From Catajapyx aquilonaris (lineage: Eukaryota), in NCBI GenBank assembly GCA_000934665.2, contig JYFJ02004299.1, positions 1-33,169 of the forward strand: a stretch of DNA of 33,169 bases, written 5' to 3'. Position 1 is the first letter of the stretch, and every line of letters starts with the position of its first letter. The position numbers were made by a program, and so were the translations under genes. Positions 1-27,034 of this stretch are shown one piece after another. The notes beneath the pieces were generated by a model. It was not told the DNA's origin and ran no database searches. It saw only the letters and a list, made by a program, of their open reading frames with translations.

Positions 1-152
1 AGGGTGGGTGGAGGGGGGTGCATGTGGGGGCCCCAGGGTTGGCGCCGGCGGCAGTAGCTGAGGCCTGAAGCGATCGCTGGTCGTCCGGTGAGGAAGAGGA
101 AGGAGGCTACCTGCCTGCTTTTGTACCTGCTTCCAGGCAGGAAGGAACAAAC

Positions 153-200
153 GAAGGAAGGAAGGAAGGAAGGAAGGTGGAGGAGGAGGAGGAGGAGGAG
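153..200 (+). repeat. (GAAG)6 followed by (GGA)7 microsatellite
   Basis: Directly visible purine-rich repeats in the intron upstream of the 372 exon. Confidence 0.9.
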
Positions 201-371
201 CCGCCGCTGCAGCTGTAGCAGCGGGCATGTCAGCTAGTGTGTTGCGCTTGTTAGGGGCCGGGGCAGGGCTCGGGCGGGTGGGCTGGGGATGGCAAATGGC
301 CCCGACGCTCATTCTTGCGATCTTTCTCTGCCAGGGCCCACCGAAATGTTTGTTTGTTGTCTTCCGGACAG

Positions 372-650
372 ATGTGGAAAAGGAGAGGTGCGGCGGTGGG
401 CTGGACAGCGCCGCGGCCAACCTGTACGAATCTGTGTGCGTCCCGGACCTGAACGACTTCTTGAGTGGTTACCCGTCGGCACCTCCTGGGGCCACCCCGG
501 CACCGGTTCCGCCACCACCTCCGTCGGCACCAGCACCAGCGCCAGCTCATTCACCGGCGCCTGCGCCATCGCCAGCACACGCATCTGCGCCGCCTCCACC
601 CTCATCTGGCTCCATGGCGCACCAGCACCAGCCCAAATCATACCTGGACG
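372..650 (+). CDS. pnt: Pointed/Ets-1-like transcription factor, internal coding exon (Pro/Ala-rich region, probably just after the PNT/SAM domain)
   Basis: Acceptor ttgtcttccggacag at 370-371 and donor G|gtcagt at 651. Phase 1-1, 279 nt. Reads (D)VEKERCGGGLDSAAANLYESVCVPDLNDFLSGY...HQPKSYLD. Phase matches the downstream exon chain leading to the ETS domain; DVEK resembles the residues following the PNT domain in Ets-1/Pointed. Confidence 0.7.
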
Positions 651-1364
651 GTCAGTTCCATTATTGTGTCATTTTCGGGTTGCTTCATACGGGGAGCGCG
701 CCCGAGGTGAAAGTGCTGCATGTGACGACAGGAAGTGGTGGCCTCCCCCTCCTACCTGCTCCCACCCCCTTCTATACAACACCTGAGCCCCGCCACCCAC
801 TTTTTCCCAGGGCTTGCGGAAGTGGGGGCAAAGGTGAGGCCGATTGTTGGCAGCGGGGGTGGGACGGTAGTCTGGACTGAGATGTGCAGCATCCGGAGGA
901 CTTTGGTCCGGGTCCAAACTGCTGTATCTCCTCCCTCCCCGTTCGGTGCAACGCACTTTGGGCGCGGGCGGTGGAATTATTTAAAACCTTTCTGGAGCGG
1001 AAGAATGCATGCTCGTGGTCCTAATTCGGGCCCGATTCATGAACCAGCAGTGTGAATGGGGTTGCCGGTGTATGTGTTGCCGATGCGGCTGCCAAGACGC
1101 GTTGCGTCACTTCCGGGGGAGGGGGTGGAACGAGGCCGCCGAACTTGAGCCACTTGTTTGATTTTGGCCCGGGGTCCATTCATTTCGCAGCAGTCTTTTC
1201 TCCCCATCCTCCACCCTGCCTGCTGCCCTACTGCTAAGCGCCGGAAATACTCTCCTCTTCTCCACCTCCTCAAAATACTCGGGAGCTGCCCAGATTGGGT
1301 TTGTGAATGGGATGCATGGGGGAAAGAAGGGTCGGGCTTTTTGAGAGGCAGCCCCACCCCAACT

Positions 1365-1436
1365 AGTCCCGTAGTTCAGTGGAAGAACGTCGCTCGTGGT
1401 TCGAGCGAGACCTGGGTTCGATTCCCAGCGGGGCGA
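1365..1436 (+). ncRNA. tRNA-like (pseudo-tRNA / tRNA-mimic) element, copy 1, intronic in the ETS gene
   Basis: Acceptor GTCCCG/CGGGGC, U8-A9, D arm GTTC-AGTGGAA-GAAC, non-canonical anticodon arm TCGCTCG-TGGTT-CGAGCGA, variable region GAC, T arm CTGGG-TTCGATT-CCCAG. A- and B-box present; TTTT at 1458-1461. Confidence 0.7.
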
Positions 1437-1549
1437 GCGGGGAGTGTTGCCAGGGAGTTTTGCGGGTGGGTCAGGTCGCGGCGACGGATGAGCTGAGTGT
1501 GGTTGGGCATAACACACGTGTGATCCATGCACTGGTCCTTCAGCCGCAG

Positions 1550-1801
1550 GCGGCGGATTCAGCCATCAGTTGGGCGAGACCAGCATGCTGGAGTCCGGCC
1601 CCGGGTCGGCGCCGGGGGCCGGCGGAGGAGGGAGCGGTGGCGGTGGCCCCGATGCAGCCCCCGGCTCGTATGAGACCTCCGACCCCGACTACCAGGCGTT
1701 GGAGGGCGGCAGCGGGGGAGCTGCCCCTTCGTCTCAACACTACTTGGACGGCTCGTCGCCCGAGTTCTACCCGCAGTACCTCAAGAGCAACTTCGGCCGC
1801 G
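1550..1801 (+). CDS. pnt: Pointed/Ets-1-like transcription factor, internal coding exon
   Basis: Acceptor ccttcag|ccgcag| (in-frame alternatives at 1544 and 1550) and donor G|gtgagt at 1802. Phase 1-1. GC-rich codons, reading (G)GGFSHQLGETSMLESG...YETSDPDYQALE...SPEFYPQYLKSNFGR. Confidence 0.75.
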
Positions 1802-2949
1802 GTGAGTACCCACTCTTTTTCCGACACATCCGCTTTTTCGGCACAAATTTAGCACGTCCAGACCACTTCCCAGTGTGCCATTTTCTTGATTCAGCGGTGT
1901 TTTTTTTGCGTCTAAAAGTAAAGTTTGGCGTCACCTACGCAAATACTCAGGAATGGTGTGTACTGTTGCCGCCGGACGGACCTGTAATGACCATAGCTCC
2001 ACTTTCAGCTTGTTTCGTTAATTTCGGGCAACTTGGCGGGGTAGAAATTCTTGGCATCAGGGAGAACTTCTACGGCGTAACCTACCGCCCGGCCCATTAC
2101 CATGGTCGGTTTAAGTCTAGTTTTTATGCCCAGTATAGTACATAATGCATTAAGCCAGCGGTCGGTCCCCGTCGCGGTGGTGTGCCGCCAGGGTCTTGCT
2201 GACGGGCGTCGAACTGATCTAAATCCAAGTCCTCTCTTTTGTTCTTTTAGGCCAATGACGCGTGATTGCATAATTACAGGGGTGTATAGGTGGGCGACGG
2301 CGTCCTTTTGTCCCTTTGTCCCTTTTTGTCCAATGAACCACCAACCAGACCGCGAAATAAATCTTGTCAAATAAGTGTATACGGGGGGTGATCTATTATT
2401 GGCGAATTTTTGTACACAGGGTTCGAACATGTCTCGTAGTGCGTGGAAGCGACAGTACAGATAAGGATCATTGGTTAAAAACAATAGCCTACTGGTATTG
2501 TCTAATAATTGAGAGCCAGGAGTATTTTAACAATTGAATCGCAACATTTCCGGACGAATTTCGTTACGTTCGCTTGTGACTTGGTTATAGACGCAGAGTT
2601 GATATAGTACATATAGGATTGCGATGTGGGGTGGTGGAAAAGAATAGCAAATATCCTCCCCGACTTCGTTCCGAATTGCTAACGACAATTATTGGTTTAA
2701 TTTCGGCTCCATTAGAGAGATAAGCGACTCTCAGTTTTTGCCATCCATTTGGGGCCTTGTAGTCTGGATAGCGGAGGTAACTTATCCGTGGAATAACTTT
2801 GCATTTTTAACATTTTGGTACGTTGCCCCATGGGTGAGTTACCTCCGATGTCTGTACTAATTCATACCCCGTTATCAGCCTTTTTCGGCTCTTTAGGGGG
2901 GAAGTTTTCTTTTGACTGGAACTCTTTGCTTTCATTTTACTGCACTTTT

Positions 2950-3130
2950 TGGGATGGGATAGGGACGGAAGGAAGCGGCTGTGGCCTGTTAATGACGGAA
3001 ACAACTCCGGAATTTTCCTAGAGGGACCGTGGGAAACCACAGAAAACCACGGTCAGAGTTGCCGGCCCCGGGATTTGATCCCAGGACCTCCCGATTAGCA
3101 GTCCGACACCGTATATCCCCTACTCCAAAC
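2950..3130 (-). mobile_element. tRNA-derived SINE relic
   Basis: Minus strand has a tRNA head (tcggactgctaatcgggaggtcctgggatcaaatcccgg, degenerate B-box) followed by ggttttctgtggtttccc...aggccacagccgcttccttcc, a body typical of insect tRNA SINEs as I recall them. Boundaries approximate. Confidence 0.7.
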
Positions 3131-3198
3131 TGCCTCGGTACCCGATGTCTGTACTATAGGGCCGATAAAGGTCAACTAATATCGTGCGGAATATACTA

Positions 3199-3552
3199 CA
3201 GGCAACTCCCGACTTACTTGGATCCGGACTTACGTAAAAATTCCGACCTGCGCAATAATCTACGGCATTGACAAACTGGTAACGTATAAAATGCGGCCAA
3301 TTGTGAGAAAACGGCGCGGCGGGCGCTAAAGGCAACTCAAACCTGCCCGCCTAGGCTCATTCCCTCAGTCATTTTGCGACCAAATTATGGGCCTCGCGAA
3401 GAATACCTTCCCGCTCGCAACAGCCTCAATGTGATAGGACAGTGACTGCAGTATCTGTGTATAAGTACCGCACAGTATACTGAGTAATTTTTAAAAACAG
3501 GTTCCGAGTTACGTAAAATTGCGGAACGATCCACGTAAGTCGGGGGCTTCTT
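3199..3552. mobile_element. Tc1/mariner-pogo-type MITE (degenerate)
   Basis: TA|caggcaactcccgacttacttggatc on the left is inverted against gatccacgtaagtcgggggc on the right. Internal repeat ttacgtaaaa near both ends; no ORF. Confidence 0.6.
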
Positions 3553-6500
3553 TATTCGTCTACTTAGAAACTGCTTAGAAATGGTGGCCGAGTGGGTTAC
3601 TCTGCAGGATATTCCCGCAGCTGCAGGTAGACGACCACACTTGACGAAACGAAAATTGACAATCGATTACATCTCCGCAACAGAACCTGCAAATGCAAAA
3701 TCATCTGAATGTTTTTGAGCGATATAGTACACCTGTAACGGCCATCACATAACGCGATTATTCCAGTACGCTAATGTAATAAGGTACAAACACACACATA
3801 GGAAGCGGTCTTATCAGGAACTGTTCCGTCCCTCAACAACATGCGGTTGGTTTTAACTTATCTACATTTTGAAAACAAAACGTGGTAGAGAAATTGTTGC
3901 ACAGGGTAACCCCACAGGAAGTGACAATCTCTCCTGGCAGTGTCGTAAATAATGAGCATGTCAATGTGACTCTAGAATAAATGGGGACACCGTCGATGTT
4001 CGCAAATACACGTGAAAACGACAACAAACAGCCGCACACTGCCAAAGCGTAAAGTCGCACCGTCCACATCTTTATGCTCGCGACTGTACCATGCAAAAGC
4101 TGGACTCTTGCCTGACCAATGATATCGGGCTTAGGGTGCATCAGAAATAGGACGTAGAAAGGTGCGCCAACTCAAAATGTGCAAGGATTGTGCTGGCACG
4201 ATGCATCCGTTGGCATCAGATGAGCGCCGGCGTTAGCACTTTCCGATTATAAGAGGAAGAACTGAGGTCAGTTCATAACTGCTCCAGATCAATGGGAAGT
4301 GATGACCCGGCCAACCTTTTGTTTGCACCTGCGTGTATGGGTCGTATCTTTGCGTTGATACTATTATTCTGAAGGGGGATGACCACGTGCATTGGGCGGA
4401 TACTGGCAATTATTGATGATCATGCGCGGTACGGGCTCGTATACGGCGGGGTTCCGTTATTTGCGACAGATTCGTTACAGGCAGGTTGAGCGTCATTAGC
4501 ATGTTGCGACTTCCTTGTCATGTGAAGTGATTGTCCAGAGGGACGAGCCAGGTTGAACATAACGCGTGCATCAGTATTTTGCACATCCTGTGAGACACAT
4601 CGGTGTGTCACGAATATCGTGTGCAGTATAGGGATGGTGCAATATCACGTGACCTTTGCGCAATGTCGCTGGTAACAAAATCCCTTTTGAAAAGGATCGA
4701 CGATGGTGTATTCTTACAGGGCTCTCCTATCAGGCCAACCCAGTCGACTTTGGAAATGCGATGACCTCATAACCTCCGTGCCCTCCACCTTAGATGCTCA
4801 CGTATCAGGTGAACAATTGATCCGAAATGAAACCGTTTGTCCGACTAGTCCAGCAAAATATACTTGCTCCTCAGGTCGCTACCGCACCTGCCTGTTTTTT
4901 CCCCACCATTTTTTATTATTATTTAGCCTGAGGCCACCTTCCCCACCACCACCACCCTCCCCCTGTTCCTTTGTTTCCGGCCGGCCGGCTGCTGCCGCCC
5001 CCTCACCTTGATTGTTACTTAGCTTAAGGCCGCCGCAGCTGACGCCAACTTTCTTGGCCATCCGGCATGACAAGCAAGGTGGCCCGGTGGAAGCGGCCGG
5101 TGCAACCGATCGCTCGGCTCTAATATTTCGGAGCTGGCCTGCTGATTATTATGGAGATACTCCTGGTTGTTAGCCACGCCATGTATGTGCGTCATATGCG
5201 GCCTGAAAGATGGACTCATTTATGGTACAACAGGTGCCATCGGGAGTGTCCAATACCTGTACAGTAATTAAAATGATCACCTCTATAGTAATTAGCATAG
5301 GGTTTGGTCACAGAGAAGCGTAATTTAGAAATTGCGCACGGAATAAAATCCACGAAGGTGATTCACCATGAACCGTCACTTTTTTTGTGGAGTTTGGCAA
5401 GTCTGGTTACTCTTGCGTTGATCCGGTTGTCACTGTGGCCATAATGGGTATGTGACTTGGCGATTTTGTGTAATGAGAGGCGTAAACATGTTTTATTATC
5501 CGCCCACCCGAACAATACCTTTAATTTTTTTTTTTATAAAAAATTGTTCGTAGCTTTTAATGGAGTAAAGGCTCGTGAATTTGCGGTTATCACGTTTTTA
5601 TCCCGAACCCGTCAATTGCACGTGTTTTTGCGAATTGTTACAAAACCTGACCAACTGACATCGTATTGACGCAGCGCGTGAAATTATTTCTACGTTGAAA
5701 TTGCGTGCAACCAGATGTGTGAAATTGCTGTCTACGCTTCCAAATATTTACGCGCTGTGCTGAGTCAGCTTACCAGGGCAGATAGTATGGACAAACTTGT
5801 CCGTTATCAAGCCCAGCCAGGGGAGATATATCCATGAAGAGGGAGGGGGAGACAAAAAAAAAACTCTGCTTCTGTTTCATATTTTATCAGATATGTTCAT
5901 TCAGTTCTGTTCCGTTATTCTAAAGTCAGTTTTTTTAATGAACCGTTGTCATTCTCGGCAGTTTATGTCCGCTGGACTTATTTCATTTATTCGGTTTTTT
6001 ATTTTATTTTATTTTTTTACATAGTCTGTACTCTGTACTTGAGCGTGCCGTAACGCTGGCATAGGGAACCACCACATACCATTGCCACCTACTTTATAGA
6101 CGACCCCATAGCTACATCCGGTAGACGACATTGTTGTCTGTCGATAGTGCAAATTCTGTAAGTGGATTACGTGACGACCTTGTCCCGTAATGGACGCAAT
6201 GTAGTCCATAAACCATGTTTTTTCGATATTTCGCTGTAGAATTGCAGAGTAGAAAGTGCTGAATCATCCGCTGTTATTCAGAATGCGACATGCAACAGGT
6301 GCTATAGTCATTTCTGTTTCAACTTACATTATTAGGAAAACTACACTGCTTTTATTTTTGATCATAATAGTTTTGCACATGTTATTGAGCTTGTGACCCA
6401 TCCATATGGATATACTAGTTTCAGTGAGTGAATTATCGGGAAAGTCCAATGACACTTTTAAGGACAAGGTTGGCCGCTGCATGAATCTCAATGAAGGCAT

Positions 6501-8220
6501 AATTAATACAGATGAATGCTGAGACGTATCGCAATAGGCCAGATTCTCAATTGTAAATTGAAGTGCTGACCCACACTTGCAAGGTCGGTCAATTGAGAGG
6601 CAACACGGGCGACATTTACGTGGCTGAATAATGCGAAGACAAGAAAGTTAATATTGATGAAAAGGCACGTTGGTGGACGATAGGCTTCGAACAAAAACCG
6701 AGTCAGCAAGCAATTGTTATTATGGAGAGTTGCCTCCACCTGCTGAGGAATGCTGTGTAACACCTGTAAATAACGAGTACACCTGTTAGCATTATTTTGA
6801 TTCCACGACACAAGTCTCTGACTGAACATAAGCAAGGATAATTGTGAACTGTTTTATCTCGATATGGCTAAAAGCGTCTTAGTCACAGAACTTAATGTGT
6901 TACGGCTGATACCGATATCGGGGTAAATAAACACCGTGTTAATATATTGTAAATTATTAAATCGATTTTGTGTTACGTTATTGTTTACGACACTTTTAAG
7001 ATGCAGGTCGTGCAATTTCCGGTATTGCATGTGCATAATTTAGCGTGAAATACTGTAGTTGGCCCAATGTCACCCTCAGTTCATGGCAGAAAATCGTGTC
7101 CAACAGAAATCTCTCATTACTCTTGGGCAAATCTGAACATTACTGGAAGTAAATAAATATTTGATAGGTAACAATCCGAAACCAATTTTCGTTCCACCCA
7201 ACTTGCCTCTTCCTAGAACATGTATTTTTTTTCCATGTGGGAGGAGAAAATTGAGGATGCGCCTCCCATAAGCAGGGCTAAAATTGCACAAATGAAGTCA
7301 AGGTCAGGGGGGATCATTAAAAAAAAAAAAATACGGTCCTGCGGTCCTAATGGTGCATTTCAGCCAAACGGTGTTACGAAAATCTCAACACGACGCCAAG
7401 TTCCGGTAATTTGTGCGTTTCTGAAGGACCACCGTTTTGGGCTGGTATATGTGGCACGTGTTTCCCCGGTGGTGGGCGTCCATTTCCGAATCAAAATGAT
7501 AAATTCAGACTTGTATCTAGACAAGGAAAGTTTTGATTGCAGGTTGAATGGCCCATTTAGTGAGGAATCAAATGTCCGACTGCTCGCCTTGGACACTTGC
7601 CCGTAGAACATTGTCGTTTGTCAGTGTTCAATGAGGACTTTAATCTAGGCCTCACTTTGAGATGAATTAAGGAAAATATGAAGATATTTTGTTACATGCA
7701 TGCTGTCGTATTCTACATACTTTTAAAATGTCTTCCCCCCCCCCCCTCCCCCCTGCAGGATGCAAAATCATGGTGGCAGTTGAGATAGTGTGGTGATGCT
7801 TGCAACATTACTAACATAATAATTGCTAGAGCAAAAGGTGACTCACCGCCTGCTTTTCATGCAAATTTTGGTATTAAAATGCTTAATAAGAGATAGTGGT
7901 TCAAGTTGCAGTTCAAAAGTTGAAATTCGACACAGGTTCCCAGCTAAAGTAGCCTTAACCTCGGGTTTAAACTTCATGTAGGTTGCAAGTTCATGGGAAG
8001 GATGGGGTTGACAACCGGACTTATCTGAGGTGTGTGATGATGAACTCGTGGGACGTATTGAATTTCAAGGAAAACTGACCAGTAGGGGACGTTGCGGCTA
8101 GAAATATGTGGTAGCCACCGCAGTTGTCGTGCTGGAAAGGTGCTGGACAGTTCAGAATAGTGAATCTCGCTCAGGATGTGGTTGTGGAATGCTGCAGACT
8201 GGAATGAAATCTGGAATGGG

Positions 8221-8520
8221 CCTACCGATGGTGCTACCAATGCTGCTACCCATGGTGCTACCAATGGGACTACCAATGGTGATACCAATGGGGCTACCGA
8301 TGGTGATACCAATGGTGCTACCAATGGTGATACCAATGGTGCTACCAATGGTGCTACCAATGGGACTACCAATGGTGCTACCAATGGGACTACCAATGGT
8401 GCTACCAATGGGACTACCAATGGTGCTACCAATGGGACTACCAATGGTGCTACCAATGGGACTACCAATGGGACTACCAATGGTACTACCAATGGTATGA
8501 ATGGGACTACCATTGGTACT
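8221..8520. repeat. 12-nt tandem repeat array (ACCAATGGTGCT / ACCAATGGGACT / ACCAATGGTGAT), about 24 units
   Basis: Directly visible, no spacers. Produces the repetitive ORFs TNGA/TNGT, MVLP/MGLP, VAPL/VVPL and IGST/IGSP. Confidence 0.95.
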
Positions 8521-8991
8521 ACGACCCGGAATACAGATGGGAATACACACCGTAGGTGTTAGGTTTATGTGAAAGGAGGAGTTGACAACTTACCTGCAGT
8601 CTTTTAAGACCCACTTGTGACGTGATGTAAGGTGTAGTTACATGAGGGGCCCAGGCAGGCTAGTTTCATGGTTGCAATTATATAGGCTGACTACAGCTGA
8701 CTTTAGCAGATTTCCATCTATGGCCAAGTCCTCTCAATCTCATTTCGAATGCAACTGGTCCTCAGGATCAAAGCATGAGTTGAATTTAATTGGAAAATGA
8801 TCAGTGACACTATGAGGAAATTGGATCTGGAGATGTGTGTGATAGCTTCAGTTACCTTGCTGGCAAAGTAGTCGATGGTTCAGAATAGTAATGTCCCCTA
8901 AGATGTATTTCTGTGCAGACATTGTGTTACCTCTTTTGTTTAACCCTCACTGCATTAACCTACAGTAAGGTAATTTTGTCTTTCTGAACAG

Positions 8992-9312
8992 GTCGGTATG
9001 GCGCCAGTGACTATGGCGAGGCTTATGGAGCCAGCCCGCACTACGACTCGCCACCCTTCCAGACGGTCCCCACTGCTACCCCTGCCCCTGCCCCTGACCA
9101 GTGGGCACCCTCGCCTTCAGAATTGGCCCATGCGCACCATTTGCACGCTCACCATGCGCATGCAACATTTCTTCGTGAACCTAGTGCCCAGGCTGCGCCC
9201 ACGACACATGGCCATGCCCACGGCCATGCCCATCCTCACAGCCACCCGCATACCCAGCCCAACGGTGATACCAAACCAGTGATCCAGGCCTCTATGCTAA
9301 ACAGCTACACAG
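8992..9312 (+). CDS. pnt: Pointed/Ets-1-like transcription factor, His-rich exon before the ETS domain
   Basis: Acceptor ttttgtctttctgaacag at 8990-8991 and donor G|gtgggt at 9313. Phase 1-1. Reads (G)RYGASDYGEAYGASPHYDSPPFQTVP...HGHAHGHAHPHSHPH...DTKPVIQASMLNSYT, in frame with the ETS exon. Confidence 0.85.
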
Positions 9313-9413
9313 GTGGGTGCTACATTGCCATTAAAGGTGTTTAAATCTACAAGTATATACTCTATACTGTACACATCTCATATACCCGGGTTCTCATTGA
9401 CTAATTTACACAG

Positions 9414-9711
9414 GTGGTGGGCCCTGCTTCACTGGCTCCGGACCAATCCAGCTGTGGCAATTTCTGCTGGAGTTGCTGACGGACAAAAGCTGCCAAAGCT
9501 TCATTGCCTGGACAGGAGATGGTTGGGAATTCAAGTTAACCGATCCCGATGAAGTGGCGCGTCGCTGGGGCATCCGCAAGAACAAACCTAAGATGAATTA
9601 TGAGAAGCTGAGCCGAGGCCTGCGATACTATTATGATAAGAACATTATCCATAAGACCGCAGGCAAAAGATATGTTTACCGCTTTGTGTGTGACCTGCAG
9701 AACTTGCTGGG
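9414..9711 (+). CDS. pnt: ETS DNA-binding domain exon, Ets-1/Ets-2/Pointed subfamily
   Basis: Reads [98 protein letters not shown], the Pointed/Ets-1 ETS domain. Acceptor tttacacag, donor GG|gtgagt at 9712. Confidence 0.97.
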
Positions 9712-9787
9712 GTGAGTAGAACCTGTTTGTTTACCTCAGAACTCAGGAGGCAACAGAAGGTAAAATTGTTGCATCTTTTCTTGACAG

Positions 9788-9851
9788 ATATACCCCAGAG
9801 GAGCTGCATGCAATGGTTGATTTGAAGCCTGAGAAGAAGGAAGACGACTGA
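9788..9851 (+). CDS. pnt: Final coding exon of Pointed/Ets-1-like gene
   Basis: Acceptor cttttcttgacag at 9786-9787, phase 2. Reads (G)YTPEELHAMVDLKPEKKEDD with TGA at 9849-9851, matching the Ets-1 C-terminal YTPEELHAML motif. Confidence 0.95.
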
Positions 9852-10344
9852 AGAGATGCACTGTCCGCTTTGTGTTCCATCCAGCCTCGAGACCGCTCTT
9901 AGTGCCTTCTGGTGGAGAAGCGAAGACAAAGATGAGGAGTAGGAGGAAGGGGAGGGAGGGAGAATGGACCAGTGCTGCCCCAGCAAATGCTGGCTTTTCC
10001 GGGCTGCCAGGCGACCAAGCACATACACTTCGAGGTTTGCTCCCTGCCGATGGAACAAAAAATGAACAAGTGTAGTAAGTTAAAAAAAAAAACAACTTAG
10101 GTGTTTTGCAATCATGCATTTTAAGTTAATGTACATAAATTTTAGTTTATGTATGACATTGATTGTTGTGATTGATTTGGAGCCAAAGGCTGTTATAAAG
10201 CGTACTAGACTATTGACATGACAATTTTGTCCAAGCAGTGACAATCACGAGGACGCTAGTTTTTTCATCTAAGAGGATTTTTGTACAGGAAATCAAAGAT
10301 ACCAACAAGGTTACAAAATATTCTGTGTTACAAGGTAACGACCA

Positions 10345-10354
10345 AATAAATAAA
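10345..10354 (+). terminator. Candidate polyadenylation signal of the ETS gene (overlapping AATAAA; a further one at 10665-10670)
   Basis: AATAAATAAA in the AT-rich region about 500 nt after the stop codon. Confidence 0.35.
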
Positions 10355-13300
10355 TTTCGTAGGACCACTTTTTGTACATAATTAGTCTGACATTTACTAC
10401 AAAGGAAAAGAATGTGATCATATATCATTGTTTTAAGCAAAAATGAAGATGGATGGAAGATCTGAAATGCTACAAAAAAATACCTATACAGTATAGATAC
10501 TTAGATCTAAGTCATAGATTTAAATGAGCTGACTTATCACCCACCAAATTTTAATTGTCTATTTATTTAAGCTGCACCTATAAAGTCTATTTTCGTCTGA
10601 TTGGCTCCACTATATGTATGACCCAAATTTTGTACTTAGAATTATTACTATTATACATTGTCCAAATAAAAGGGAACTTCCAGCGGAACGTTTTGGAAAA
10701 GCCTCATTGGAGCGACGACATTCTGTCACCTGCCAGCTCTGGGCTGTGTCATTATGAGCGCCAGGTCTAGGAATTCAATCAGACGATGGATGGATTGGTT
10801 GTTGGCAGGCAGGCATTTTTTTCCCTCCATTTTTTTTTACTTGGGACCAGGAAGAAGAAAAGGAGGAGGAGGAGCGGAAGTTGGAGGAAGCAAATTCCAC
10901 GATCCTTCAAAATGTAATTTCGTGATTCTAGATTCGTCGCTTCCTCTTTTTCATCCCCCCTCCCTTGCGTCCCCCCCCAAACCCTCCTCTCCCCACCTCC
11001 TTCATCTCCCTCCCCCTCCCCCTCCCCCTTTCCCTTAAACTAATGGACAAATTGAATCATGGGAGCAGGCCCTTAACAAGGTTTTGGAGCCCCGCGTTTT
11101 TCTCCTAACCTAATTTGGACTGTATCACCACTTTGATTTTGACACAAGCAGGCCTTTTGGGCCTAAATGGTGGGGATTGCTGGCTGCCAGCTTGAGAGGG
11201 CCCAATTAATGCATAAGGGGGTGGGACACGGGGGTGGGCAAGGCACAAACTCCAACAAACAATTACTTTACTCGCCTAACTACCTAGTTTGGCCAGGACG
11301 CCACCTGCAAAAAGGAAGGAAGGAAGGAAGAAGGCACAGGGAGTAGGTTGTTGGGGAGGGGGGGGGGGCGCACCGTGGGAACAAGTGCTCCTCGTGCCAC
11401 GGGCCAATAACCGCCCCGACAACAATATGGCATTGTGCTGAGCCTGGCCTGGCTTTTTTATTAGTCGAGCGGACTTTTGAGCAAACTTTACGGGTATAAG
11501 GGGGGGGAAGGTTGGCATGAGGGAGAATGGCTTCCGCTGGGAGCCCGCGTCTTATCGTGGGGATCATCTACTCTCAAATAGGTGAGTGAGTGTATCGGGA
11601 AGGATGCTCGGAACTTGTAACACCCCACACCTCCCCTTCTCCTCCCCCAGTAAAGCTCACACTTGATTGTTGGCGGTAGGCCGGATGCCGGTTGGTGAAA
11701 GTAACGTTCGCTCTCTCCATACGCCGTCTTGGATTCTTGATTCATTGTCTTGGGAGATTCGGGCAGGAAGCACCGGGTGCAGGGGATAGGGTGGGTGGGG
11801 GGGAAGATTCATGATTTCGTACAACTGTACTTCCAAGGCCCTCCGGTATAACCTGATCCATCCATTCATTCCCCTCGAGTTGGGGGGGGGGGGGTTTACA
11901 TCCCTCCTCTGCCCTCGCTCGGTTGCTTGTTCGCCGGACTATTAACGAAATCATGTGCCTAAACCTATTTTATTCTTGTTTTCGGAGCTTCCTGAATATA
12001 TGCGATTTGAGGAGATGGAGTTAGGGTCATAGACTATGTTGTGGAGCCGAGAGCAGCGACCTGGCGACATTAGATTGTCCTATTGCATCAATTGATTCAC
12101 CTTTGCTATTTTCGGGTCGCAAGTCGAAGCAAAGAGGTGGTGGCCTCGAATCCAGTGGTCTGAGGGGATGAGTCCATTACCTTGAGGTGACCTCAGTTGA
12201 AAATGGAGGGTTGGAGTAACTCGAGACGCCTGTCTTTCTCGGGTGTTTGAACTGTCTTTGACATCCAGTGACATAATGCTCGTCCTCTTTGTCGGCACCG
12301 GCGCTGTGTCTGCAGACTTGGAAATGGCAGGAAAAGAGCCCAATAGGACAATGGCTCTCTTCAAACTGCACAATAGGTAGGTATAGGCAATAGCCAATAG
12401 GTAGTAAAACTATAAACGGAAGTTGATAGTCGTGGGGGTCCAGGATTCTCTACCGACCCTGTAACACTTTTCTTACCCATTTCCGGCCATACATATGACC
12501 AGAAGCATGACGCATTTTATGTTAGTTATGACTGTCAATTAACGAGGTACTAGGATGGGTAACCTCGGCCGAATTTCTTGTTTACACCACGTGTAAGGTA
12601 AATTCAAACTCCCCTACAACGTTGTGAGAGTATTGTAATATATAAAAAATATTCTACTTCTACGTTGGTGTTAGATGTTGACACTGACGCTGATTTTTTT
12701 TTTACATAACTGATGGTTAGTCAACTTACTGCCAAGGGGGAAAATATGGCCTGTGACTGTGCTCCTTCATGGTTAATCAGCTGAATAATGCAATACACAA
12801 TAGACCAAGGCCCCCAAATGCAAGGTATAACTTCCGGTAAAAAATGGACTTTTTATATTGCTGTTAAATCTCAGCAGCATGTTCCTAACGGGTATTTGTA
12901 GTAGTATTGCAAAACGAAGTATCTGGGAGTTTCTCGACTGTTGTAATCTTTGTTTTGCTTACCTATACCAGCCTATACTAATTGAACCGTGCTCTACATG
13001 CATATACTGGTATATTTGATAGCTCAACAACTACTACGTCACGGTGGCGCCCTTTCAATAGCTTGCTGCATAGAAAGATTAGAAACTGACAGATGAATTC
13101 AATCTGAGGAACATGCTTATTAATTATGACGATCTTAATAATAAATAGCACCAGTTACTACTTACTGTTCTAGATTCTTCGTCACATACAGTCAGGGTAT
13201 AGCTACACACAACCACGCTACAACTATTATAGACTGGAGTATGCTCGTGGTAGTCAAATAGCCTGAAGTACCAAAGTCCAACAGCATAGTTCCCGTGAGG

Positions 13301-13505
13301 ATGTCAACCAGACCCTACGTCCGTCAAGCTGTGCCATCCCACTTCCCGGTCGTGTAGTCTTTTATCGCAGTTAGTGCCGCGTTGGTCCTAGTCAGTGCTG
13401 TTTCAGTATTCTTTGATGCTGCTGCTTAAATTTTTCTCATTATCTGTGTAGCCGGAAGCCCTCCATTTTAGTGCAGAAATCTGGATACTTATAACTTATT
13501 ATAAC

Positions 13506-14156
13506 TAAGTCCGGATTTTTAGGCAAATGCCTAGTTCCTTTACAGTTGGGATGTTTTGTGAAGAGATCTATCCGTTTCATAAGAGCAGGATGTGGAAAAT
13601 GCAGGTTTTATAGTGCCTAAAATTGCCTATTTCGTGGTTTTAGGAACTATTTTGTCTATTCTGGTTTTTGGCCTTTTTTTGGGATAGTTAGTTTTGAACT
13701 TTTTGAAGCAATTTCGGGACTTTTTAGACCTATTCCGGACTTATTCCTTCAGACTGTTCAGAGGCATGTTTGGTAGTTTTGTGCGGAGTATTTTTTGTGC
13801 TCCTGTGAAACGACAAAAATCGTTCATAAGTAATTATAGTTTCACTAATGAAAATCTACTGTATAAAAATATTTGGCAACATACTGTGCAAGTGGAAACG
13901 GGCTTTAAGCGGTCGAGTCCAGAGCAAGTGATACTTGCTTGCACTTTGTGTCTTGTTGCCGAAGTTTTGTGATTTTCTGTCAGTTTATCGTTGTTATTAG
14001 GTTTTTGCTCTGGTTTGTGACCTTATATTTATTATTTAGGCCAATAAAATTTGTGCCTCTCTTTGATTTTCTGTAACATTATCTTGCATACGCCCACAAA
14101 AGTAAAATTTTCTTGCCTATTTCAGGGTATTTTCGTTCCTAAAAATCCGGACTCTA
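13506..14156. mobile_element. Non-autonomous DNA transposon (hAT-like MITE)
   Basis: Terminal inverted repeats ta-agtccggatttttagg (13506-13523) and cctaaaaatccggactcta (14138-14156). 8-bp TSD-like flanks attataac / cttataac (7 of 8 match). Subterminal tgcctattt-type repeats. Confidence 0.8.
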
Positions 14157-16259
14157 CTTATAACATCCAGGCTGGCGAATATAGGCGACGTTCTTGTTCC
14201 ACAAACTATGGAAAATACACACTTGGCCTTTTGTTTAGCCGAAACTTTTGGGTAAGTTAATTGCGCACTGTGCTGCTAATAAGGTAAGCAAAGAATTTTC
14301 GAAACATTAACAGCAAATTGTTTGCATGCACTGTACGCGCAGATCTGCAGACTTCTAACCTCGAAACGTCTCAACTCCATATAACTTATCTCATAACATA
14401 CACTGTAACGCTCTGAGGCGCGACCTAGAGACTATAGATCATACAAAGATCATACAGAGGATGGGTACTATACAATATAGTGTGGCGTGACTGTAATAGC
14501 ATTAAGTGCCTGCTTAGACAACCAGAACATTACGTGCTAAAACCTCTCCTCTGCCTTTCAAATGTGCCTATTTCAAGATCAAAATGATCGCACTAACTCA
14601 TACGAGTCTATCCCCCGGCCATCTGTTGGTACTCTCTCAACTCTCCGAAATGATTGTGATTTTCTGGGGCGTTAATGAAGTGTGTGGGAACCACGCAAGC
14701 TTTAAAAAATACGCTAATGTAGGCTACACGAATATACAGTACAACCAAAGACTTGTGTTTTATTTTCTCCATGTAGTTATGACAATCTTGCCTAGCGTTC
14801 CTTTTAGTTGGTTCTAACAGAGAGGCCCAGCAGTTCAGTTGAACCTCATACATCATAAAGAATCGCGTATATGCGCATCCACTCATAACTGCATCACCCA
14901 CTCTGTAAGGGCAACATTACTTAACTGCAATCACTACGTTATTGTTGGCCTTGGCTGCAATCTACTCCACTGGCAGGATATAAACCAGACTTTCCTGACA
15001 TCTAGGGACGGCTTGCTTTACTTCCCCAACCAAACGCCTACAGATGGCAGGAGAGGAGAAAGGTTGGTGGCATCTCATGAACTGAATATTTATTACGGCT
15101 GGCAGAATATTTCATTAGCTCATTTGTCTTGGTTCACCTCAATCTTAGATCTCACAATTAGAGCAGTTCAGGCGGTTTAGCCCAACCAGAGTCCTTCAAC
15201 ATCGGCTGCCCCATAATTTAGTAAAAAATTGTAAATAAAAAATTACGTGCAGAATTTTAAAAGGACATTCCCGACACATTCATGGCTAGTTGCGCTATTT
15301 ATTAAATGAGGCTTAAATGACCCGTCCTTGAAACTAGCAGATGGATAACCTAACATGTTGGCTACGGGAAGTGATATCTGTTTATTTATTTCATTTTTAT
15401 TTAAACAAATTATTTGGTGGGGGGGGGGAGCGGGAGCATAATTATATGCTCATCGGAATGTGGCTTGTAGAGCGGTGAACATATGCACTGTTAACATTAT
15501 GAAATAATGGGTTAAAACACTACACGATACAATATCCTGGAAGGTATGCGTCCCTTCGTGCGGCCTCCTGCTGGCGGCATCACCTTGCCTCTCCCTATCT
15601 CCATCTATTATCTATCCTGTCTCCGGGAGTCGAATTAGGAGGTAGAGATTTGCTACAGTGTATAGCGGCAGCATATAGCCGAAGCTGATGGGGTCATTAT
15701 TTCCCGCTGTTATCCAGCGCAATATAAACGGCCGGGTCTAAAGGTGTTGGCTGCAATAAGAGGCAGGCACATCCAAAATTGCGTGCAGTTGGGAACACTG
15801 CGCGACATAATTTCATTGTGGCACCGGCACTCTGGTATACGGAAATGAGCCAGGCTGCCGGCTCGCTTTATTTCAAGAACGTTACATTCTAAAGCCACTT
15901 TGGCTACGTTGTGCTCTCGTCAAATCATATTTTGGTAAGCCGTTTTACATGAAGCTTACAGTGCAAGCCTCATACACCAAGTGAATAGGCATTCACCCTG
16001 TGTGCATGCAGTGCAATAGTCCAATTGTGGCGCATCCTGCACACTGCAACCTTTTCTGTAAGAACAAAAATGGTGCCCCCATGACCATCGGAGCCTGCAA
16101 GCGTAGTGGCAGAACGCAGCTTGGGCAAGTAGTGAGTCGGTGGGCAAGCGCCGAGAGTTCCACCCCCTCCGGATCGATGTCAGCTTTTCTCCCGCTGCCA
16201 CCCCCATGGGTTGCCCCGGCCCTTCCGAGGCATCCTGGCCCGTAGTCTGATCCGACCCC

Positions 16260-17122
16260 TCAGTCCGCTGGCAGGTGCGGTGGCAGGTGCTCAGCTCGTA
16301 AGTACAAACCCGTCCGGCTCGTGCGGCCCATTCAACCCCGTAGTTCAGAGGCAGAACACACCTGATCAGTGGACCTGGGTTCGATTCCCAGCGAGGTTGG
16401 GGGCTGAGCCGGAGCAGGGTACACTAGATAACTTACATATTAGGGGGAGGTGGGGAGGGGCTGCCTAATTCTTGCCGTCTTCCTCCATGCATGAGTCCGC
16501 TTGCGCGCAGTCGGACGGGCCGCTGCTCGCGCCCTCCTTTCCTTGCTCCCAATCGATCACACAGCCCCCGTAGTAGTAGCAGCACCATCATCGGCGTCCG
16601 CTCATACCCACCCATCGGTCTTGCATTGTTGTGTGTAAGTGAGAGTGGTGGCCTGGTTAGGCTGGTCCCCCATTAGACGGAGGCAGGAGGATGGGGGGCA
16701 TAGGAGCTTAGTAGTGGAACCTGCAGAAGGGGGAGGGGGGGGATGTTTTGCAGGGTTGGATGGGGAGGGAGGGGCTGGGAAGAAAGGAGGGAGGGGGAGG
16801 GTGGGTACCATGGGTGCCAACAGGTTGAGGTGCGGGTTATGGGGCGAATCGATCGATGGCGGGAAAGACAGCAGGGGCGCCAATGTTGGCCCATCTCCCT
16901 GCCTCCGATCAGGGTTGACCCGATGACCTCTTTCGACTGTCAGTCTTGCCCACTTTGATAGGAAAAAGGTGGTGAGTGTGCGATGTGTTGGGGAGCGGGA
17001 GGTTCTGCGGTCCTGCACGTGCTACGGAGCCGGCAGGAATGAGTTGGCACTCTTGCTGCAGTCGCAGCCTGCAGGAGAGCCTCGTCCGCTTAGGAAACGT
17101 CGTCTGCCCGGACGTTCTGCAG
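16260..17122 (+). promoter_or_regulatory. GC-rich putative Dop2R promoter / 5' UTR region with Inr-like motifs and short non-coding exons
   Basis: TCAGTC at 16260 and 16940 and GCAGTC at 16507, each followed by a strong donor (gtaagt 16298, gtaagt 16635, gtgagt 16972). Candidate acceptors at 17061, 17074 and 17122. Two GCAGGTG E-boxes at 16271 and 16283. Confidence 0.45.
16334..16399 (+). ncRNA. tRNA-like (pseudo-tRNA / tRNA-mimic) element, copy 2, at the 5' end of Dop2R
   Basis: Acceptor AACCCCG/CGAGGTT, D arm GTTC-AGAGGCA-GAAC, shrunken anticodon arm CAC-CTGATCA-GTG, variable region GAC, T arm CTGGG-TTCGATT-CCCAG. The T-arm block is identical to copy 1. Confidence 0.7.
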
Positions 17123-17206
17123 GCGGCAGACTAAGTGCGTGCCTGGTGCTGCTGCCTGCGTGCGTGCGTGCGGTGGTGGTGGGCTAGTGGCGGCGCCTGG
17201 TGGAGG

Positions 17207-17335
17207 ATGCCCCAAGCGGCCTCCTTGCTGAGCAGAAGATGGGGCAAGGCCACGCCGCCCAGCACCAGAGCCATCGCCAGCACCACCACCAGCACCACCA
17301 GCACGCTGTTGCACCTACACCACAACCACTCTTCG
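17207..17335 (+). CDS. Dop2R: Probable first coding exon of dopamine D2-like receptor (start ATG at 17207 or 17239)
   Basis: GC-rich ORF ending at donor TCG|gtgagt (17336). From 17207: MPQAASLLSRR...STTTSTTSTLLHLHHNHSS (phase 0, with an NHS sequon). From 17239: MGQGHAAQHQSH...PQPLF (phase 1). No homology support; inferred from splice phase. Confidence 0.55.
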
Positions 17336-18459
17336 GTGAGTGGCCATCTTCTTTCAATGGCGGAGGGGGGTTGGCCAAGGGAAAAGAGCTCATGCGCACC
17401 ACGGATATATAAGCACCGGTTCTGCACATTTTTGCTCACATACTGGCATCGGAAGCATGTGGTCTAGGTTGTGACACAGTTTAGAGGAAGGCCAAGTTAG
17501 ACGTCCCCAAGAAGTTCTTGTGTACCTCGCGCGTTGTGGTTCCAGTGACGTGCGGTCATGTGATTCTTTAATTATGCCGCACATGGTACATAGCATAATA
17601 TTTTGCATGAGCTTAATCAGTAGGGTAATACTTATGGAATGTACAAAACACATTTTGAGATGAATTCCACACCAAGAGAAGCATCCACTAATATCGAGCT
17701 CCTCACTCTTCTATCTGCACCACAATATGTGGATTCTCCAAATGCCATTCCATAGAGATAGTGGTGTAGTTAATATGCGCTTCTTTTTGAAGACTTGCCG
17801 TCAGAGAGTCTAGTCCGGTTAGCTCACATGGACACAATCCAATCGGTAGTGTATACAGTCAGGAGCGGGGTGAGCGCCAGCATTGAAATCCCTTGAGATG
17901 TCCAAACTGGATGTAAGAAAAGTTACAGAACTTGCAGTATAGCGTAATCTAATTTATGTGACACACGGACATCAAGGGACGAAATTGTCACGAGGACCAT
18001 TTCGCATTAATTCGCGTCTACCAGAGCTTGCGGATGACTTATCATTGACGTGGACTCATTTTGCGCAAAAGTACTAATATTTCATGAGAAGGGGCGGAAA
18101 GAAAGTGGGGTTCCTAACAGTTCCCCTGCCCCATTCTGGCACTTGTGATATCCACGGGGTGTGTCTGTAGTTCTAAAAAGGATTAGAGTCAGGTGATAGT
18201 CGAATTTATCAGGCGCCATAATTAATGTTCTCTATTTTTTGTTATTGGATCGTCACGAAGCAGCGAGTCAATCCAACTCTAGGACTCCACGCCTCAAAAT
18301 CGAAGGGTTGCGTGCGGCATATCGTCAAAAAGGAGCACACTTGCGGTCAAGTTTCCCTGGCCACTTGGCTAAAGAAACTATCGTGCGGTTTGCTGAGAGC
18401 TCTGCTTGTACAGTGTTGACAGCCTACCTGACAGGGTTCTAAACGGATCCTTCCTTCAG

Positions 18460-19264: not shown

Positions 19265-19409
<145 letters not shown>

Positions 19410-19994: not shown

Positions 19995-20165
19995 AATCCT
20001 GTGGTGCTGTAGTTAGAGATGCAGCCCTCCTCATGTAGGATCCCCTGTCCGAACCTCTGGTCGGGCAGACGACTTTCTCATGTGAAGAGAGTTTCCATGG
20101 TTCTCTCGTGGTCGCGTGGGTTTTCTTGGGGTTCTCCCGTTTTCTTTAGCAATCAAAATCCATCA
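19995..20165 (+). mobile_element. Degenerate tRNA SINE with V-domain-like central region
   Basis: Weak tRNA head, then gagagtttccatggttctctcgtggtcgcgtgggttttcttggggttctcccgtttc. This resembles the V-SINE core (ggagtttgcatgttctccccgtg...gcgtgggtttcctccgggtgctccggtttcc) as recalled from memory. Confidence 0.55.
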
Positions 20166-24200: not shown

Positions 24201-24541
24201 AGTATCCAACAGCACAGTGAGCACCTTTGTAAGAGACCGCTGCGCCGTATTGTACTACACCAAGCTGATGCCGCTGATTTAGGCTGGAGGTCTCACCAGA
24301 ACCCCTCATCCTCATGTAGCAGATTAGTTCCAAGAAGAAAATTGCTATTCGCGCCTATAGGGAACAATTTGCATTACTTTCTAAGCGTGACACGTGCCTC
24401 GGGTGTAAACATTTCATAACATCCCCCTACAAATGAATAACCTGGAATAACCTCCCTAGGGGAGGAGGACAGACCCCCGAAATACTCCTCCATTATGACA
24501 TGATGAGTATGTTAATAAAGGTTTGTGACAATATGTTACAG

Positions 24542-24979
24542 GCGGAGTGGGCGGAGAGCAGCAGTGGCAACAGCACGTGGCAATGGCTAGGCGTCGGAGT
24601 GGCTGCTGGAGGCGACGGAGGCGGCGGGGTCGGAGCAGGGGCGGACGGTGCTGGGGCAGGAGTTGGGGCCGGAGGAGCCGGAGGGGCAGCGGGGGCAGGA
24701 GCCACTGCAGCTGGAGCGGAGGTGGCGGCGGAAGGCGCTGTCGCCGGCGCCAATGGCACCCTGGCGGGCGACGACCAACTCTTGGAGCCCGAGCGCCAGT
24801 ATTGGGCAGCACTGCTGGTGCTCTGCCCCGTGCTGACCGTCTTCGGAAATGTGCTGGTCATCCTGGCAGTCCGTCGGGAGCGTGCCCTGCAGTCCGTCAC
24901 CAACTACTTCATCGTGTCCCTGGCACTGGCCGACCTGCTGGTAGCCGTTTTGGTGATGCCGTTTGCCGTTTACGTTCTG
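24542..24979 (+). CDS. Dop2R: Dopamine D2-like receptor exon: Gly/Ala-rich N-terminus, TM1 and TM2
   Basis: Reads [60 protein letters not shown], matching insect Dop2R (GN, LAxAD motifs). Acceptor ttacag at 24540-24541, donor gtacgt at 24980; phase 0-0. Confidence 0.93.
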
Positions 24980-25111
24980 GTACGTAGGCTACATGCCACC
25001 CTACTACCGGCTCTTGCCGGACTGTCTTGTATGTGTGTTGTCACTCGAATCACTAGCCCGAAGCAAGTAGCATGCACGCTGTCTCTCTTCGTCCTCCTCC
25101 CCTCGGTCCAG

Positions 25112-26695: not shown

Positions 26696-27034
26696 CAGAT
26701 GGTCAGTAACACCCAGATTCGCTTCAGGTAGTTATTTTTTGGCATATTTTGAGGCTAAAATATGCTACTATTTTTAAAGGGCCGGGAAGCATAATATTAT
26801 TATGGCGTGCGGAGGCAATGTTGTCTTGGTGACATCATGTTAATGAATGGGCTATCATGTGGAAAGATAGATTATCCATATGGGGACATCATCAAAACTT
26901 AATTTTCGCAGCACGCCATGTTTTTTCTCGCAGCAACCCATGTTTAAGCATCGATGCCAAATATGATGTAAAATATTTTGTCCTTATAATAGGTCTAGAA
27001 ATTGCTCACCTGAGGTATAACAGACCACCCTGTA
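26696..27034. mobile_element. Degenerate mariner-type MITE
   Basis: Right end ctgaggtataacagaccaccctg|ta is a typical TA-CAGGGTG terminus. The left end cagatggtcagtaacacccag is its degenerate inverted counterpart. Confidence 0.45.

Follow-up and report, generated by a model that had tools for sequence, protein, structure and literature searches.

Are the two tRNA look-alikes that lie near an ETS gene and a D2-like receptor gene of Catajapyx aquilonaris leftovers of tRNA-type genes, or are they elements in which the tRNA elbow is kept by selection? We analysed the whole stretch of 33,169 nucleotides in which they occur (hereafter, the window), comparing the two copies with each other, with their genomic setting and with known tRNA-like systems.

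Shared arms and unrelated middles

Two tRNA look-alikes are found in the window, both on the + strand and 15 kb apart: the 72-base copy 1 (1365–1436) and the 66-base copy 2 (16334–16399). The Rfam tRNA model RF00005 scores them at 41.9 and 40.8 bits, respectively, both above its gathering score of 29, and gives no further tRNA matches over the whole window. ARAGORN called copy 1 alone, as tRNA-Thr(GGT) at 1364–1438, and made no call on copy 2. A family model scanned over the window likewise detected no third copy, the next match reaching 18.0 bits and lacking a T arm.

The 22-base T-arm block is identical in the two copies and, with up to 3 mismatches tolerated, is present exactly twice in the window as compared to 0.00 occurrences expected; the 21-base D-arm pattern (19 of 21 positions identical between the copies) occurs twice as compared to 0.01 expected. 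When the copies are compared without the middle segment, they agree at 41 of 49 positions; the eight that differ are positions 16 and 20 of the D loop, acceptor positions 2, 3, 68, 71 and 72, and the discriminator. If the outer acceptor, the discriminator and these two D-loop positions are set aside, 41 positions remain, with zero changes. The middle segments, in contrast, are 23 bases long in copy 1 and 17 in copy 2, and are not alignable. The acceptor, D and T arms are of canonical size in both copies, and both retain the residues that are generally known to build the tRNA elbow, namely U8, A14, G15, G18, G19, A21, C48 and the TTCGA loop. The acceptor stem is paired at six of its seven positions in each copy, with an A.G mismatch at 1:72 in copy 1 and a C.A mismatch at 5:68 in copy 2; pair 2:71 is G-C in one copy and A-U in the other, a single instance of a double compensatory change. 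No block shared between the flanks was found, and the GC content near both copies is 0.60–0.62, as compared to 0.45 window-wide. On all these points – the shared D-arm and T-arm blocks, the retained tertiary contacts, the altered but still paired outer acceptor, the unrelated anticodon arms of 19 and 13 bases, the unrelated flanks and the GC-rich surroundings – the preliminary description of the locus agrees with our counts and comparisons.

That description had also taken both anticodon arms to be hairpins still, which is borne out for copy 1 and only weakly, if at all, for copy 2. In copy 1 a D stem of 4 bp closes a loop of 7 bases, the variable region is short and the T arm canonical; the anticodon arm, of 19 bases, can be drawn either as 7 bp with a 5-base loop or, in an alternative register, as 5 bp with a 7-base loop and one extra base at the junction of the D and anticodon stems. 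Its minimum-energy fold is the cloverleaf (−30.6 kcal/mol, z −2.44). In copy 2 the anticodon arm is cut to 13 bases (3 bp and a 7-base loop), and the cloverleaf, at −14.6 kcal/mol, lies 3.5 kcal/mol above the minimum-energy fold of −18.1 kcal/mol; with a z of −0.67, and 45 of 200 shuffles folding equally well, this fold is no better than that of shuffled sequence. An anticodon stem of 5 bp that closes a 7-base loop at the canonical spacing is present in neither copy. Position 37, which by rule is a purine in tRNAs, is a pyrimidine in every register that can be drawn for either copy. We take both sites to be real tRNA-derived sequences that are unable to decode.

Any sequence derived from a tRNA carries a B box. 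Scanning the window for the B-box pattern GGTTCGANNCC with at most one mismatch returned eight sites, of which only those within the two copies, at 1415–1425 and 16378–16388, are exact. A T4 run on the + strand at 1458–1461, 22 bases past copy 1, is a candidate Pol III terminator; it is not significant, because for 17% of the positions in copy 1's intron a T4 run starts at most 25 bases away. No T4 run is present for 347 bases 3' of copy 2.

Genomic setting

Copy 1 resides in an intron of a gene of the ETS1/ETS2 (pointed) type, the best solved relatives of which are C-ets-1 (E 2.1e-62). A spliced transcript contig of 2585 bases joins position 650 to position 1544, skipping an 893-base intron with GT..AG ends (651–1543, + strand). 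The coding exon upstream (370–650, + strand) continues in frame into the next one (1544–1801, + strand), which is followed by the donor GTGAGT at 1802, and the ETS DNA-binding-domain exon lies further downstream (9415–9712, + strand; Pfam Ets, E 1.2e-36; ends read from the sequence). Copy 1 starts 714 bases past the 5' splice site, and its end is 107 bases short of the last base of the intron, which is removed normally in this sole transcript contig.

Copy 2 is located in the spacer that separates the ETS gene from the first coding exon of a D2-like aminergic receptor gene; the inferred ETS poly(A) site is about 5.7 kb upstream of it, and the first in-frame ATG of the receptor is 8.1 kb downstream. 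The first recognisable coding exon of the receptor gene is at 24500–25000 (end approximate; + strand; Pfam 7tm_1, E 4.8e-20), and among solved relatives the D(2) dopamine receptor is the best (E 2.2e-21). None of the transcript contigs places copy 2 inside a gene. GTAAGT at 16298, near copy 2, is a mere motif, one of five donor-like hexamers in 15900–17600. While both copies had been proposed to be sense to a Pol II gene and close to splice signals, these proposals hold for copy 1, given the spliced contig and the used 3' splice site 107 bases away, and are conjectural for copy 2, beside which lies the GTAAGT motif. Both copies are on the + strand, which is the strand of the ETS gene and of the receptor gene alike.

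Copy number and SINE features

A true SINE is located at 2860–3122, just 1.5 kb from copy 1, and has a summed contig depth of 3.4–4.1 x 10^5, as compared to a depth of 11–16 for the bin containing copy 1, a difference of about 10,000-fold. Of the features of a SINE, the two copies have the head with A and B boxes, but neither a shared body nor a tail or duplication: in the 60 bases downstream of the copies there is no A-rich tail, CCA is also absent, and the flanks offer no direct repeat better than one of 5 bases, which 70% of random control pairs equal. As had been described before from the missing body, tail and target-site duplication, and with a depth contrast of some four orders of magnitude at copy 1, copies 1 and 2 are not SINE copies.

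Close relatives of copy 1 are few in the DNA contigs. Contigs with at least 80% likeness over copy 1 amounted to one variant contig per DNA run, in a comparison that is blind to members with another middle and that likewise missed copy 2's own contig. This third variant matches copy 1 save at five places, all within 1398–1407, that is, in the anticodon loop and at a single base that precedes the variable region. The depth of the variant (39.6, 23.3 and 26.9) compares with 22–31 for single-copy contigs.

Origin of the copies

We favour, with moderate confidence, the explanation that the copies are low-copy pseudogenes of tRNA type, or else degenerate Pol III units of that type, which stand alone and belong to a small, diverged group in this genome. 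We infer an origin from tRNA-type parents and no function in the host genes; a regulatory role is possible, and an effect of the copies on the neighbouring genes is unlikely. Descent of both copies from tRNA-type parents would account for the identical D and T arms, since in such parents these arms would be fixed by two jobs, the L-shaped elbow and the internal Pol III promoter with its A and B boxes. The anticodon arm, lying between the boxes and serving neither job, would be where lineage differences and disabling changes gather. The copies would be scattered without their flanks, as ordinary tRNA genes are, copy 1 having landed in sense orientation in one of the introns of the ETS1/pointed-type gene, a short one that is still removed normally, and copy 2 in the GC-rich spacer that precedes the gene of the D2-like receptor; any transcription of the copies would start from their own A and B boxes. 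Since the D and T arms also serve as the internal Pol III promoter, their being intact is expected from tRNA-type parents; inheritance therefore suffices to explain it, and selection acting on these copies is not needed as an explanation.

Several observations argue for such an origin: the low tRNA scores and the acceptance of only one copy by ARAGORN, the non-canonical anticodon arms with a pyrimidine at position 37, the poor fold of copy 2, and the presence of the window's only exact B boxes at the two copies. The lack of body, tail and target-site duplication, together with the unrelated flanks, resembles dispersed tRNA genes. It is also consistent with this origin that the intron of copy 1 is cleanly spliced out in the only transcript contig, and that copy 2 has neither a nearby T4 run nor the support of a transcript contig. 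Finally, the 22-base T-arm block is generic. It is present in at least 120 metagenome loci; of the 60 that were scanned, 15 have it within a tRNA or tmRNA gene of assorted bacteria, and 20 further loci without an ARAGORN gene comprise 19 tmRNAs and one tRNA.

According to PMC8450103, repeats and pseudogenes derived from tRNAs are known to form a major class among the low-scoring tRNA predictions of animal genomes. Our copies resemble these pseudogenes in their low covariance-model score, their non-decoding anticodon arm, their kept A and B boxes and in standing alone in an intron or spacer, and differ from them in that decay is not molecule-wide: the elbow is untouched in the two or three sequences, and relatives are few. 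Other observations speak against the pseudogene explanation. Divergence is strongly non-uniform, with 41 unchanged positions as opposed to an unalignable middle; the changes in the third variant again avoid the elbow; the outer acceptor bases differ and yet pair, including the double compensatory change at 2:71; there is no swarm of decaying copies, given the few close relatives; and both copies lie on the strand of both genes. Plain neutral decay of a single ancestor cannot leave an intact elbow next to an unalignable middle: either the parents differed, or a few mutational events of large size took place, or the copies themselves were under selection.

The last of these options, a small family of non-decoding tRNA-like elements in which selection on the copies keeps the elbow and the acceptor, is a possible alternative, which we hold to be the less likely one. 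It would explain the intact elbow beside the unalignable middle and the outer acceptor that changed with its pairing kept, as well as a third variant that differs from copy 1 in the anticodon loop and one adjoining base rather than in the elbow. That close relatives are low-copy, unlike the neighbouring SINE, that copy 1 is in sense orientation 107 bases before a used 3' splice site, and that both copies have exact B boxes also fit it. However, two or three sequences are too few for real covariation, and inheritance would predict conserved A and B boxes just as well. Copy 2 is, moreover, poor as a cloverleaf, and the transcript contigs do not put it in a Pol II gene.

The preliminary description had proposed a selected family of this kind, acting in cis on pre-mRNA cleavage, splicing or promoter architecture. 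Such a family could act in three ways. One version would have RNase P and RNase Z excise the copies from Pol II transcripts, as in the case of GUT15 or mascRNA. GUT15 and CR20-1 of Arabidopsis serve as a precedent: they are described in PMC6152437 as a related tRNA-like pair that belongs to two different Pol II genes and has no canonical anticodon arm, one of them intronic, with a disrupted A box; in the experiments reported there the RNAs derive from Pol II RNA and receive CCA, and splicing of the host intron is inhibited. Like this pair as presented in that report, our copies have canonical acceptor, D and T arms and a well-conserved T loop, and one of the two, here copy 1 only, is intronic in sense orientation; unlike it, their A and B boxes look usable, they are known here from DNA sequence, and the plant and arthropod elements bear no sequence relation. 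Cutting in the ETS intron would compete with splicing, and the transcript contig is the spliced form. The mascRNA and menRNA modules of MALAT1 and NEAT1 are described as lying 3'-terminally in a long non-coding RNA, with a triple-helix element next to them, and as defining the RNA end (PMC8457004; PMC6152437). Our copies share with them, as far as those accounts go, the tRNA shape of the fold and an anticodon region that does not decode, and such a fold might in principle be recognised by RNase P and RNase Z. Copy 1 does not correspond to a mascRNA-type 3'-end module, as it sits inside an intron that gets removed.

In a second version the copies would be folded intronic splicing elements similar to nimtRNAs, human intronic tRNA look-alikes of mitochondrial origin that, according to PMC7722341, raise splicing efficiency and require the cloverleaf to do so. 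Copy 1 is likewise a cloverleaf-forming look-alike, not expected to decode, in an intron of a protein-coding gene. The nimtRNAs are reported to derive from mitochondrial DNA inserts and not to be processed into small RNAs, while the elbow of our copies is nuclear-type (G18, G19 and the TTCGA T loop); and the nimtRNA effect is reported to be strongest near the 5' splice site, not 100–200 bases before the 3' site (PMC7722341). The third version would have the DNA of the copies bind TFIIIC or Pol III, shaping chromatin near both genes. TFIIIC-bound tDNAs and extra-TFIIIC sites are reported to act as chromatin boundaries (PMC3395662, PMC4226948), and our copies may resemble these sites in having an exact B box within GC-rich DNA near Pol II genes.

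Less probable still is a numerous, mobile and tailless tRNA-derived retroposon (a body-less SINE head or tRNA retropseudogenes), of which our two sites would be chance insertions. While two copies in 33 kb suggest a dense family or a local cluster, and the genome is rich in tRNA-derived repeats such as the SINE at 2860–3122, the copies have no tail, CCA, target-site duplication or shared flank, and copy 1 lies in a bin of far lower depth than the SINE bin. A master element should leave many near-identical copies, the middle included, as opposed to the one close variant at 80% likeness or above, and the family model recovers no further copy in the window.

It is highly improbable that the copies are decoding tRNA genes with odd anticodon arms (a tRNA-Thr(GGU) for copy 1 and a GAU-containing 7-base loop for copy 2), as the ARAGORN call, the scores above the Rfam gathering score and the T4 run 22 bases downstream of copy 1 could suggest: the scores of both are low for a working gene, the T4 run is at chance level, position 37 is a pyrimidine in both, copy 2 has 66 bases and a 3-bp anticodon stem, and copy 1 has a loop of 5 or 9 bases unless the extra junction base is placed between its D and anticodon stems. 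To our knowledge, a Thr anticodon with G34 is avoided in eukaryotes.

Anatomy of the two tRNA look-alikes

To characterise the tRNA-like sequences in the window, we searched it with Rfam and with ARAGORN. Among the six Rfam matches up to E 1, exactly two are tRNA matches: copy 1 at 1365–1436 on the forward strand (41.9 bits, E 8.8e-06) and copy 2 at 16334–16399, also on the forward strand (40.8 bits, E 1.7e-05). Both score above the tRNA gathering score of 29, and the other four matches fall far below their own thresholds. ARAGORN recognised copy 1 only, calling it a tRNA-Thr(GGT) at 1364–1438. The 22-base T-arm block occurs twice in the window when up to three mismatches are allowed (0.00 occurrences expected from shuffles), as does the 21-base D-arm pattern (0.01 expected), and a chance match is therefore ruled out.

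We compared the copies segment by segment, cutting them at the cloverleaf boundaries. Outside the middle segment – the anticodon-arm segment that separates the D and T arms – 41 of 49 positions are identical, with complete identity in the D stem (4/4 and 4/4), the T stem and loop (17/17) and bases 8–9. The D loop differs at two of its seven positions, and the remaining six differences are confined to acceptor positions 2, 3, 68, 71 and 72 and to the discriminator. Six of the seven acceptor-stem positions pair in each copy, the 2:71 pair being G-C in the first and A-U in the second. No convincing alignment could be made of the middle segments, which measure 23 bases in copy 1 and 17 in copy 2. 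In copy 1 this segment can be drawn as a perfect 7-bp stem closed by a 5-base loop, or as a 5-bp stem closed by a 7-base loop, which leaves an additional base following the D stem; in copy 2 it forms a stem of 3 bp closed by a 7-base loop. As the elbow (the D and T arms with their tertiary-contact residues) is untouched while the middle is unalignable, uniform neutral decay from a single ancestor is excluded.

The two copies also fold differently. The minimum-energy structure of copy 1 is the cloverleaf (-30.6 kcal/mol, z -2.44; 1 of 200 shuffles was as good), whereas in copy 2 the cloverleaf, at -14.6 kcal/mol versus -18.1 kcal/mol for the minimum-energy fold (z -0.67), is not the minimum. 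We found no block shared between the flanks of the two copies, no 3' tail at either copy and no target-site duplication: the best direct flank repeat is 5 bases long and was matched or beaten by 70% of control pairs. Both copies match the B-box consensus exactly. Since a T4 run following copy 1, a possible Pol III terminator, has a chance expectation of 17%, it was dropped as evidence. The preliminary description was sound in reporting two tRNA-like copies with common arms and unrelated middles and flanks.

Gene setting of the copies

At the level of the gene family, the names that had been given to the neighbouring genes are borne out. One exon encodes an ETS domain (Pfam Ets, E 1.2e-36), for which the nearest solved relatives are C-ets-1 and C-ets-2 (E about 1e-62); another belongs to a rhodopsin-type receptor, and its nearest solved relative is the D(2) dopamine receptor (E 2.2e-21). 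The exon structure around copy 1 was read with the aid of X5, a sequencing run of unspecified kind from another sample. A 2585-base X5 contig covers 370–649 and 1543–1803, its join skipping 893 bases with GT..AG ends, and the letters read as exons 370–650 and 1544–1801 in one frame. Copy 1 therefore lies in sense within an 893-base intron (651–1543) of the ETS gene; 714 bases separate its start from the 5' splice site, and 107 bases its end from the 3' end of the intron. The same contig establishes that a spliced form of this host intron exists; X5 has no contig over the host intron or copy 1, an absence that is uninformative on expression.

Further ETS-gene exons, with splice sites read from the letters, lie on the forward strand at 8992–9312, 9415–9712 and 9788 onward. 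On the same strand, a stop codon was read at 9849–9851, followed by AATAAA motifs at 10345 and 10665, and the unplaced 1516 bases of the X5 contig would end near 10.68 kb. The large intron of this gene also carries, just upstream of the exon at 8992, a minisatellite at 8167–8544 (period 12/24 bases, about 13–23 units, 85–88% matches).

Copy 2 is located approximately 5.7 kb beyond the inferred end of the ETS mRNA; the receptor exon's first in-frame ATG (24500) follows 8.1 kb further on. Five donor-like hexamers occur in 15900–17600, among them a GTAAGT at 16298, near copy 2. The proposal that both copies are embedded in genes is borne out for copy 1 only, by the spliced X5 contig; copy 2 sits between the inferred ETS mRNA end and the first recognisable coding exon of the receptor. 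GC content is 0.60–0.62 around both copies, and the high GC at copy 1 comes partly from the adjoining GC-rich coding exons. Elsewhere in the window, two perfect trinucleotide arrays, (TAT)25 followed by (ATC)24, abut at 19265–19409, and the reverse strand carries, at 27018–27083, a hairpin whose nearly perfect stem of about 26 bp encloses a 10-base loop. Its resemblance to a plant miRNA family is weak, at 28.3 bits far under the gathering score of 140, and the assignment was rejected; the hairpin may be a small inverted-repeat element.

Copy number and a variant sequence

The preliminary description had suggested scanning genomes with a model of the two copies; we ran such a model on the window. 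The model, with arms paired and middle left free, was built from copies 1 and 2, and the window was scanned with filters off. No third member emerged among the ten matches up to E 10: the best other match, at 18.0 bits, is without the T arm, and the rest score 7.6 bits or less.

To estimate copy number, we placed DNA contigs from X1–X3 (one sample, possibly the source of the assembly) on 230–8100 at 80% likeness or more, a region that holds copy 1 and ends short of the 308-base minisatellite. Single-copy contig depth in these runs is 22–31, and the bin containing copy 1 has a depth of 11–16. Over 1399–1407 there is exactly one contig per run, with depths of 39.6, 23.3 and 26.9; this count is blind to members with a different middle, as copy 2's own contig did not fall on copy 1. 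Relative to the window, the contig is a variant with three substitutions and two insertions of one base each. All five changes lie between 1398 and 1407, a stretch made up of the anticodon loop and a single base where the variable region starts, and the arms carry no listed difference.

The window's own version of copy 1 is absent from the placed X1–X3 contigs. Contigs are missing over most of 230–2596, the exceptions being the bin with the variant and, in X1, a bin of low depth at 756–1018, despite the fact that X1–X3 contain 97–98% of the sampled words of window 1–10000. The gap presumably reflects a filter in the placing method that drops records, hiding the cognate contig of copy 1. With the window's own version unplaced and records dropped, two identities are left for the variant: a third member of the family (a paralogue), or this locus as it occurs in the X1–X3 sample. 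The full depth of the variant speaks against a heterozygous allele. Whichever of the two it is, the variation again falls outside the elbow.

A SINE-like repeat of very high copy number lies at 2858–3114 on the forward strand. Its summed depth, taken over about 2860–3122, reaches 3.4–4.1 x 10^5 in X1–X3 and 1.6 x 10^4 in X5, with about 50–110 contigs per variable site and many variant contigs and loose ends; its T-arm-like part is unlike that of copies 1 and 2. A second, decayed look-alike of this SINE lies at about 20000–20140 on the reverse strand. That copies 1 and 2 are themselves SINE copies is ruled out by their unrelated flanks, the lack of a tail or target-site duplication and, at copy 1, the contrast in depth. 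Contig placement also produced many apparent joints from unrelated contigs at the C-rich tract 7733–7755, and those ending at 7732–7738 are best treated as artefacts.

Probable origin of the copies and known precedents

Both arms joined by any middle of 10–30 bases gave no match in metagenome contigs, prokaryote genomes or viral contigs, and a looser two-arm pattern likewise gave none in the prokaryote genomes. Because neither pattern is found in the prokaryote genomes searched, a bacterial contaminant tRNA is ruled out. The T-arm 22-mer alone, by contrast, has exact matches at at least 120 metagenome loci. ARAGORN, applied to 60 of these, called a gene overlapping the match in 15, either a tmRNA or one of various tRNAs, and among 20 further loci without an ARAGORN gene Rfam identified tmRNA in 19 and tRNA in one. 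Its presence in bacterial tmRNAs and assorted tRNAs shows that unrelated RNAs can come to have the same T arm; being generic, the block is uninformative on the parent of either copy.

We lean, with some reserve, towards copies 1 and 2 being low-copy tRNA-type pseudogenes. tRNA genes and their pseudogenes normally have identical cores and unrelated flanks. Each copy would have descended from a tRNA-type parent of its own. In those parents the D and T arms would have been fixed by their part in the elbow and by the A and B boxes that they contain, and the present copies would be dead or idle.

The alternative put forward in the preliminary description, a family of mimics with selection acting on the copies themselves, is possible but in our judgement doubtful. 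To our knowledge, processed or structural tRNA look-alikes in Pol II genes have so far been documented in plants (GUT15) and vertebrates (mascRNA, nimtRNAs); this kind of element is already known. There are two precedents. Arabidopsis GUT15/CR20-1 are a pair of related tRNA-like sequences that lack a canonical anticodon arm; one of them lies in an intron, is released from Pol II RNA by processing, carries a CCA tag and inhibits splicing of the intron that hosts it (PMC6152437). In human nimtRNAs, splicing efficiency is raised through the cloverleaf (PMC7722341). Like copies 1 and 2, the GUT15/CR20-1 elements form a related tRNA-like pair with a non-canonical anticodon arm, and their processing from Pol II RNA was shown in Arabidopsis. 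It is possible, though unlikely, that the copies represent an animal counterpart of this plant pair: a small arthropod family of tRNA-shaped elements that do not decode and that lie within or next to neuronal and developmental genes, which might be excised from or fold in Pol II transcripts, or recruit TFIIIC, with the elbow and acceptor selected and the anticodon arm drifting freely. Among the papers listed for crustacean tRNA-like elements and tRNA pseudogenes, none described such a family, which may still be in print. If the elbow is indeed selected in the copies, they would constitute a gene-associated tRNA-mimic family in an arthropod, and the host intron of copy 1, short enough at 893 bases to fit easily in a minigene, would be a testable case.

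A numerous tailless retroposon family is improbable. Working tRNAs are barely conceivable, and the Thr-GGT call at copy 1 is improbable. Should the copies be ordinary pseudogenes, their value is practical: gene finders call such sites tRNA, and they should be flagged as non-decoding.
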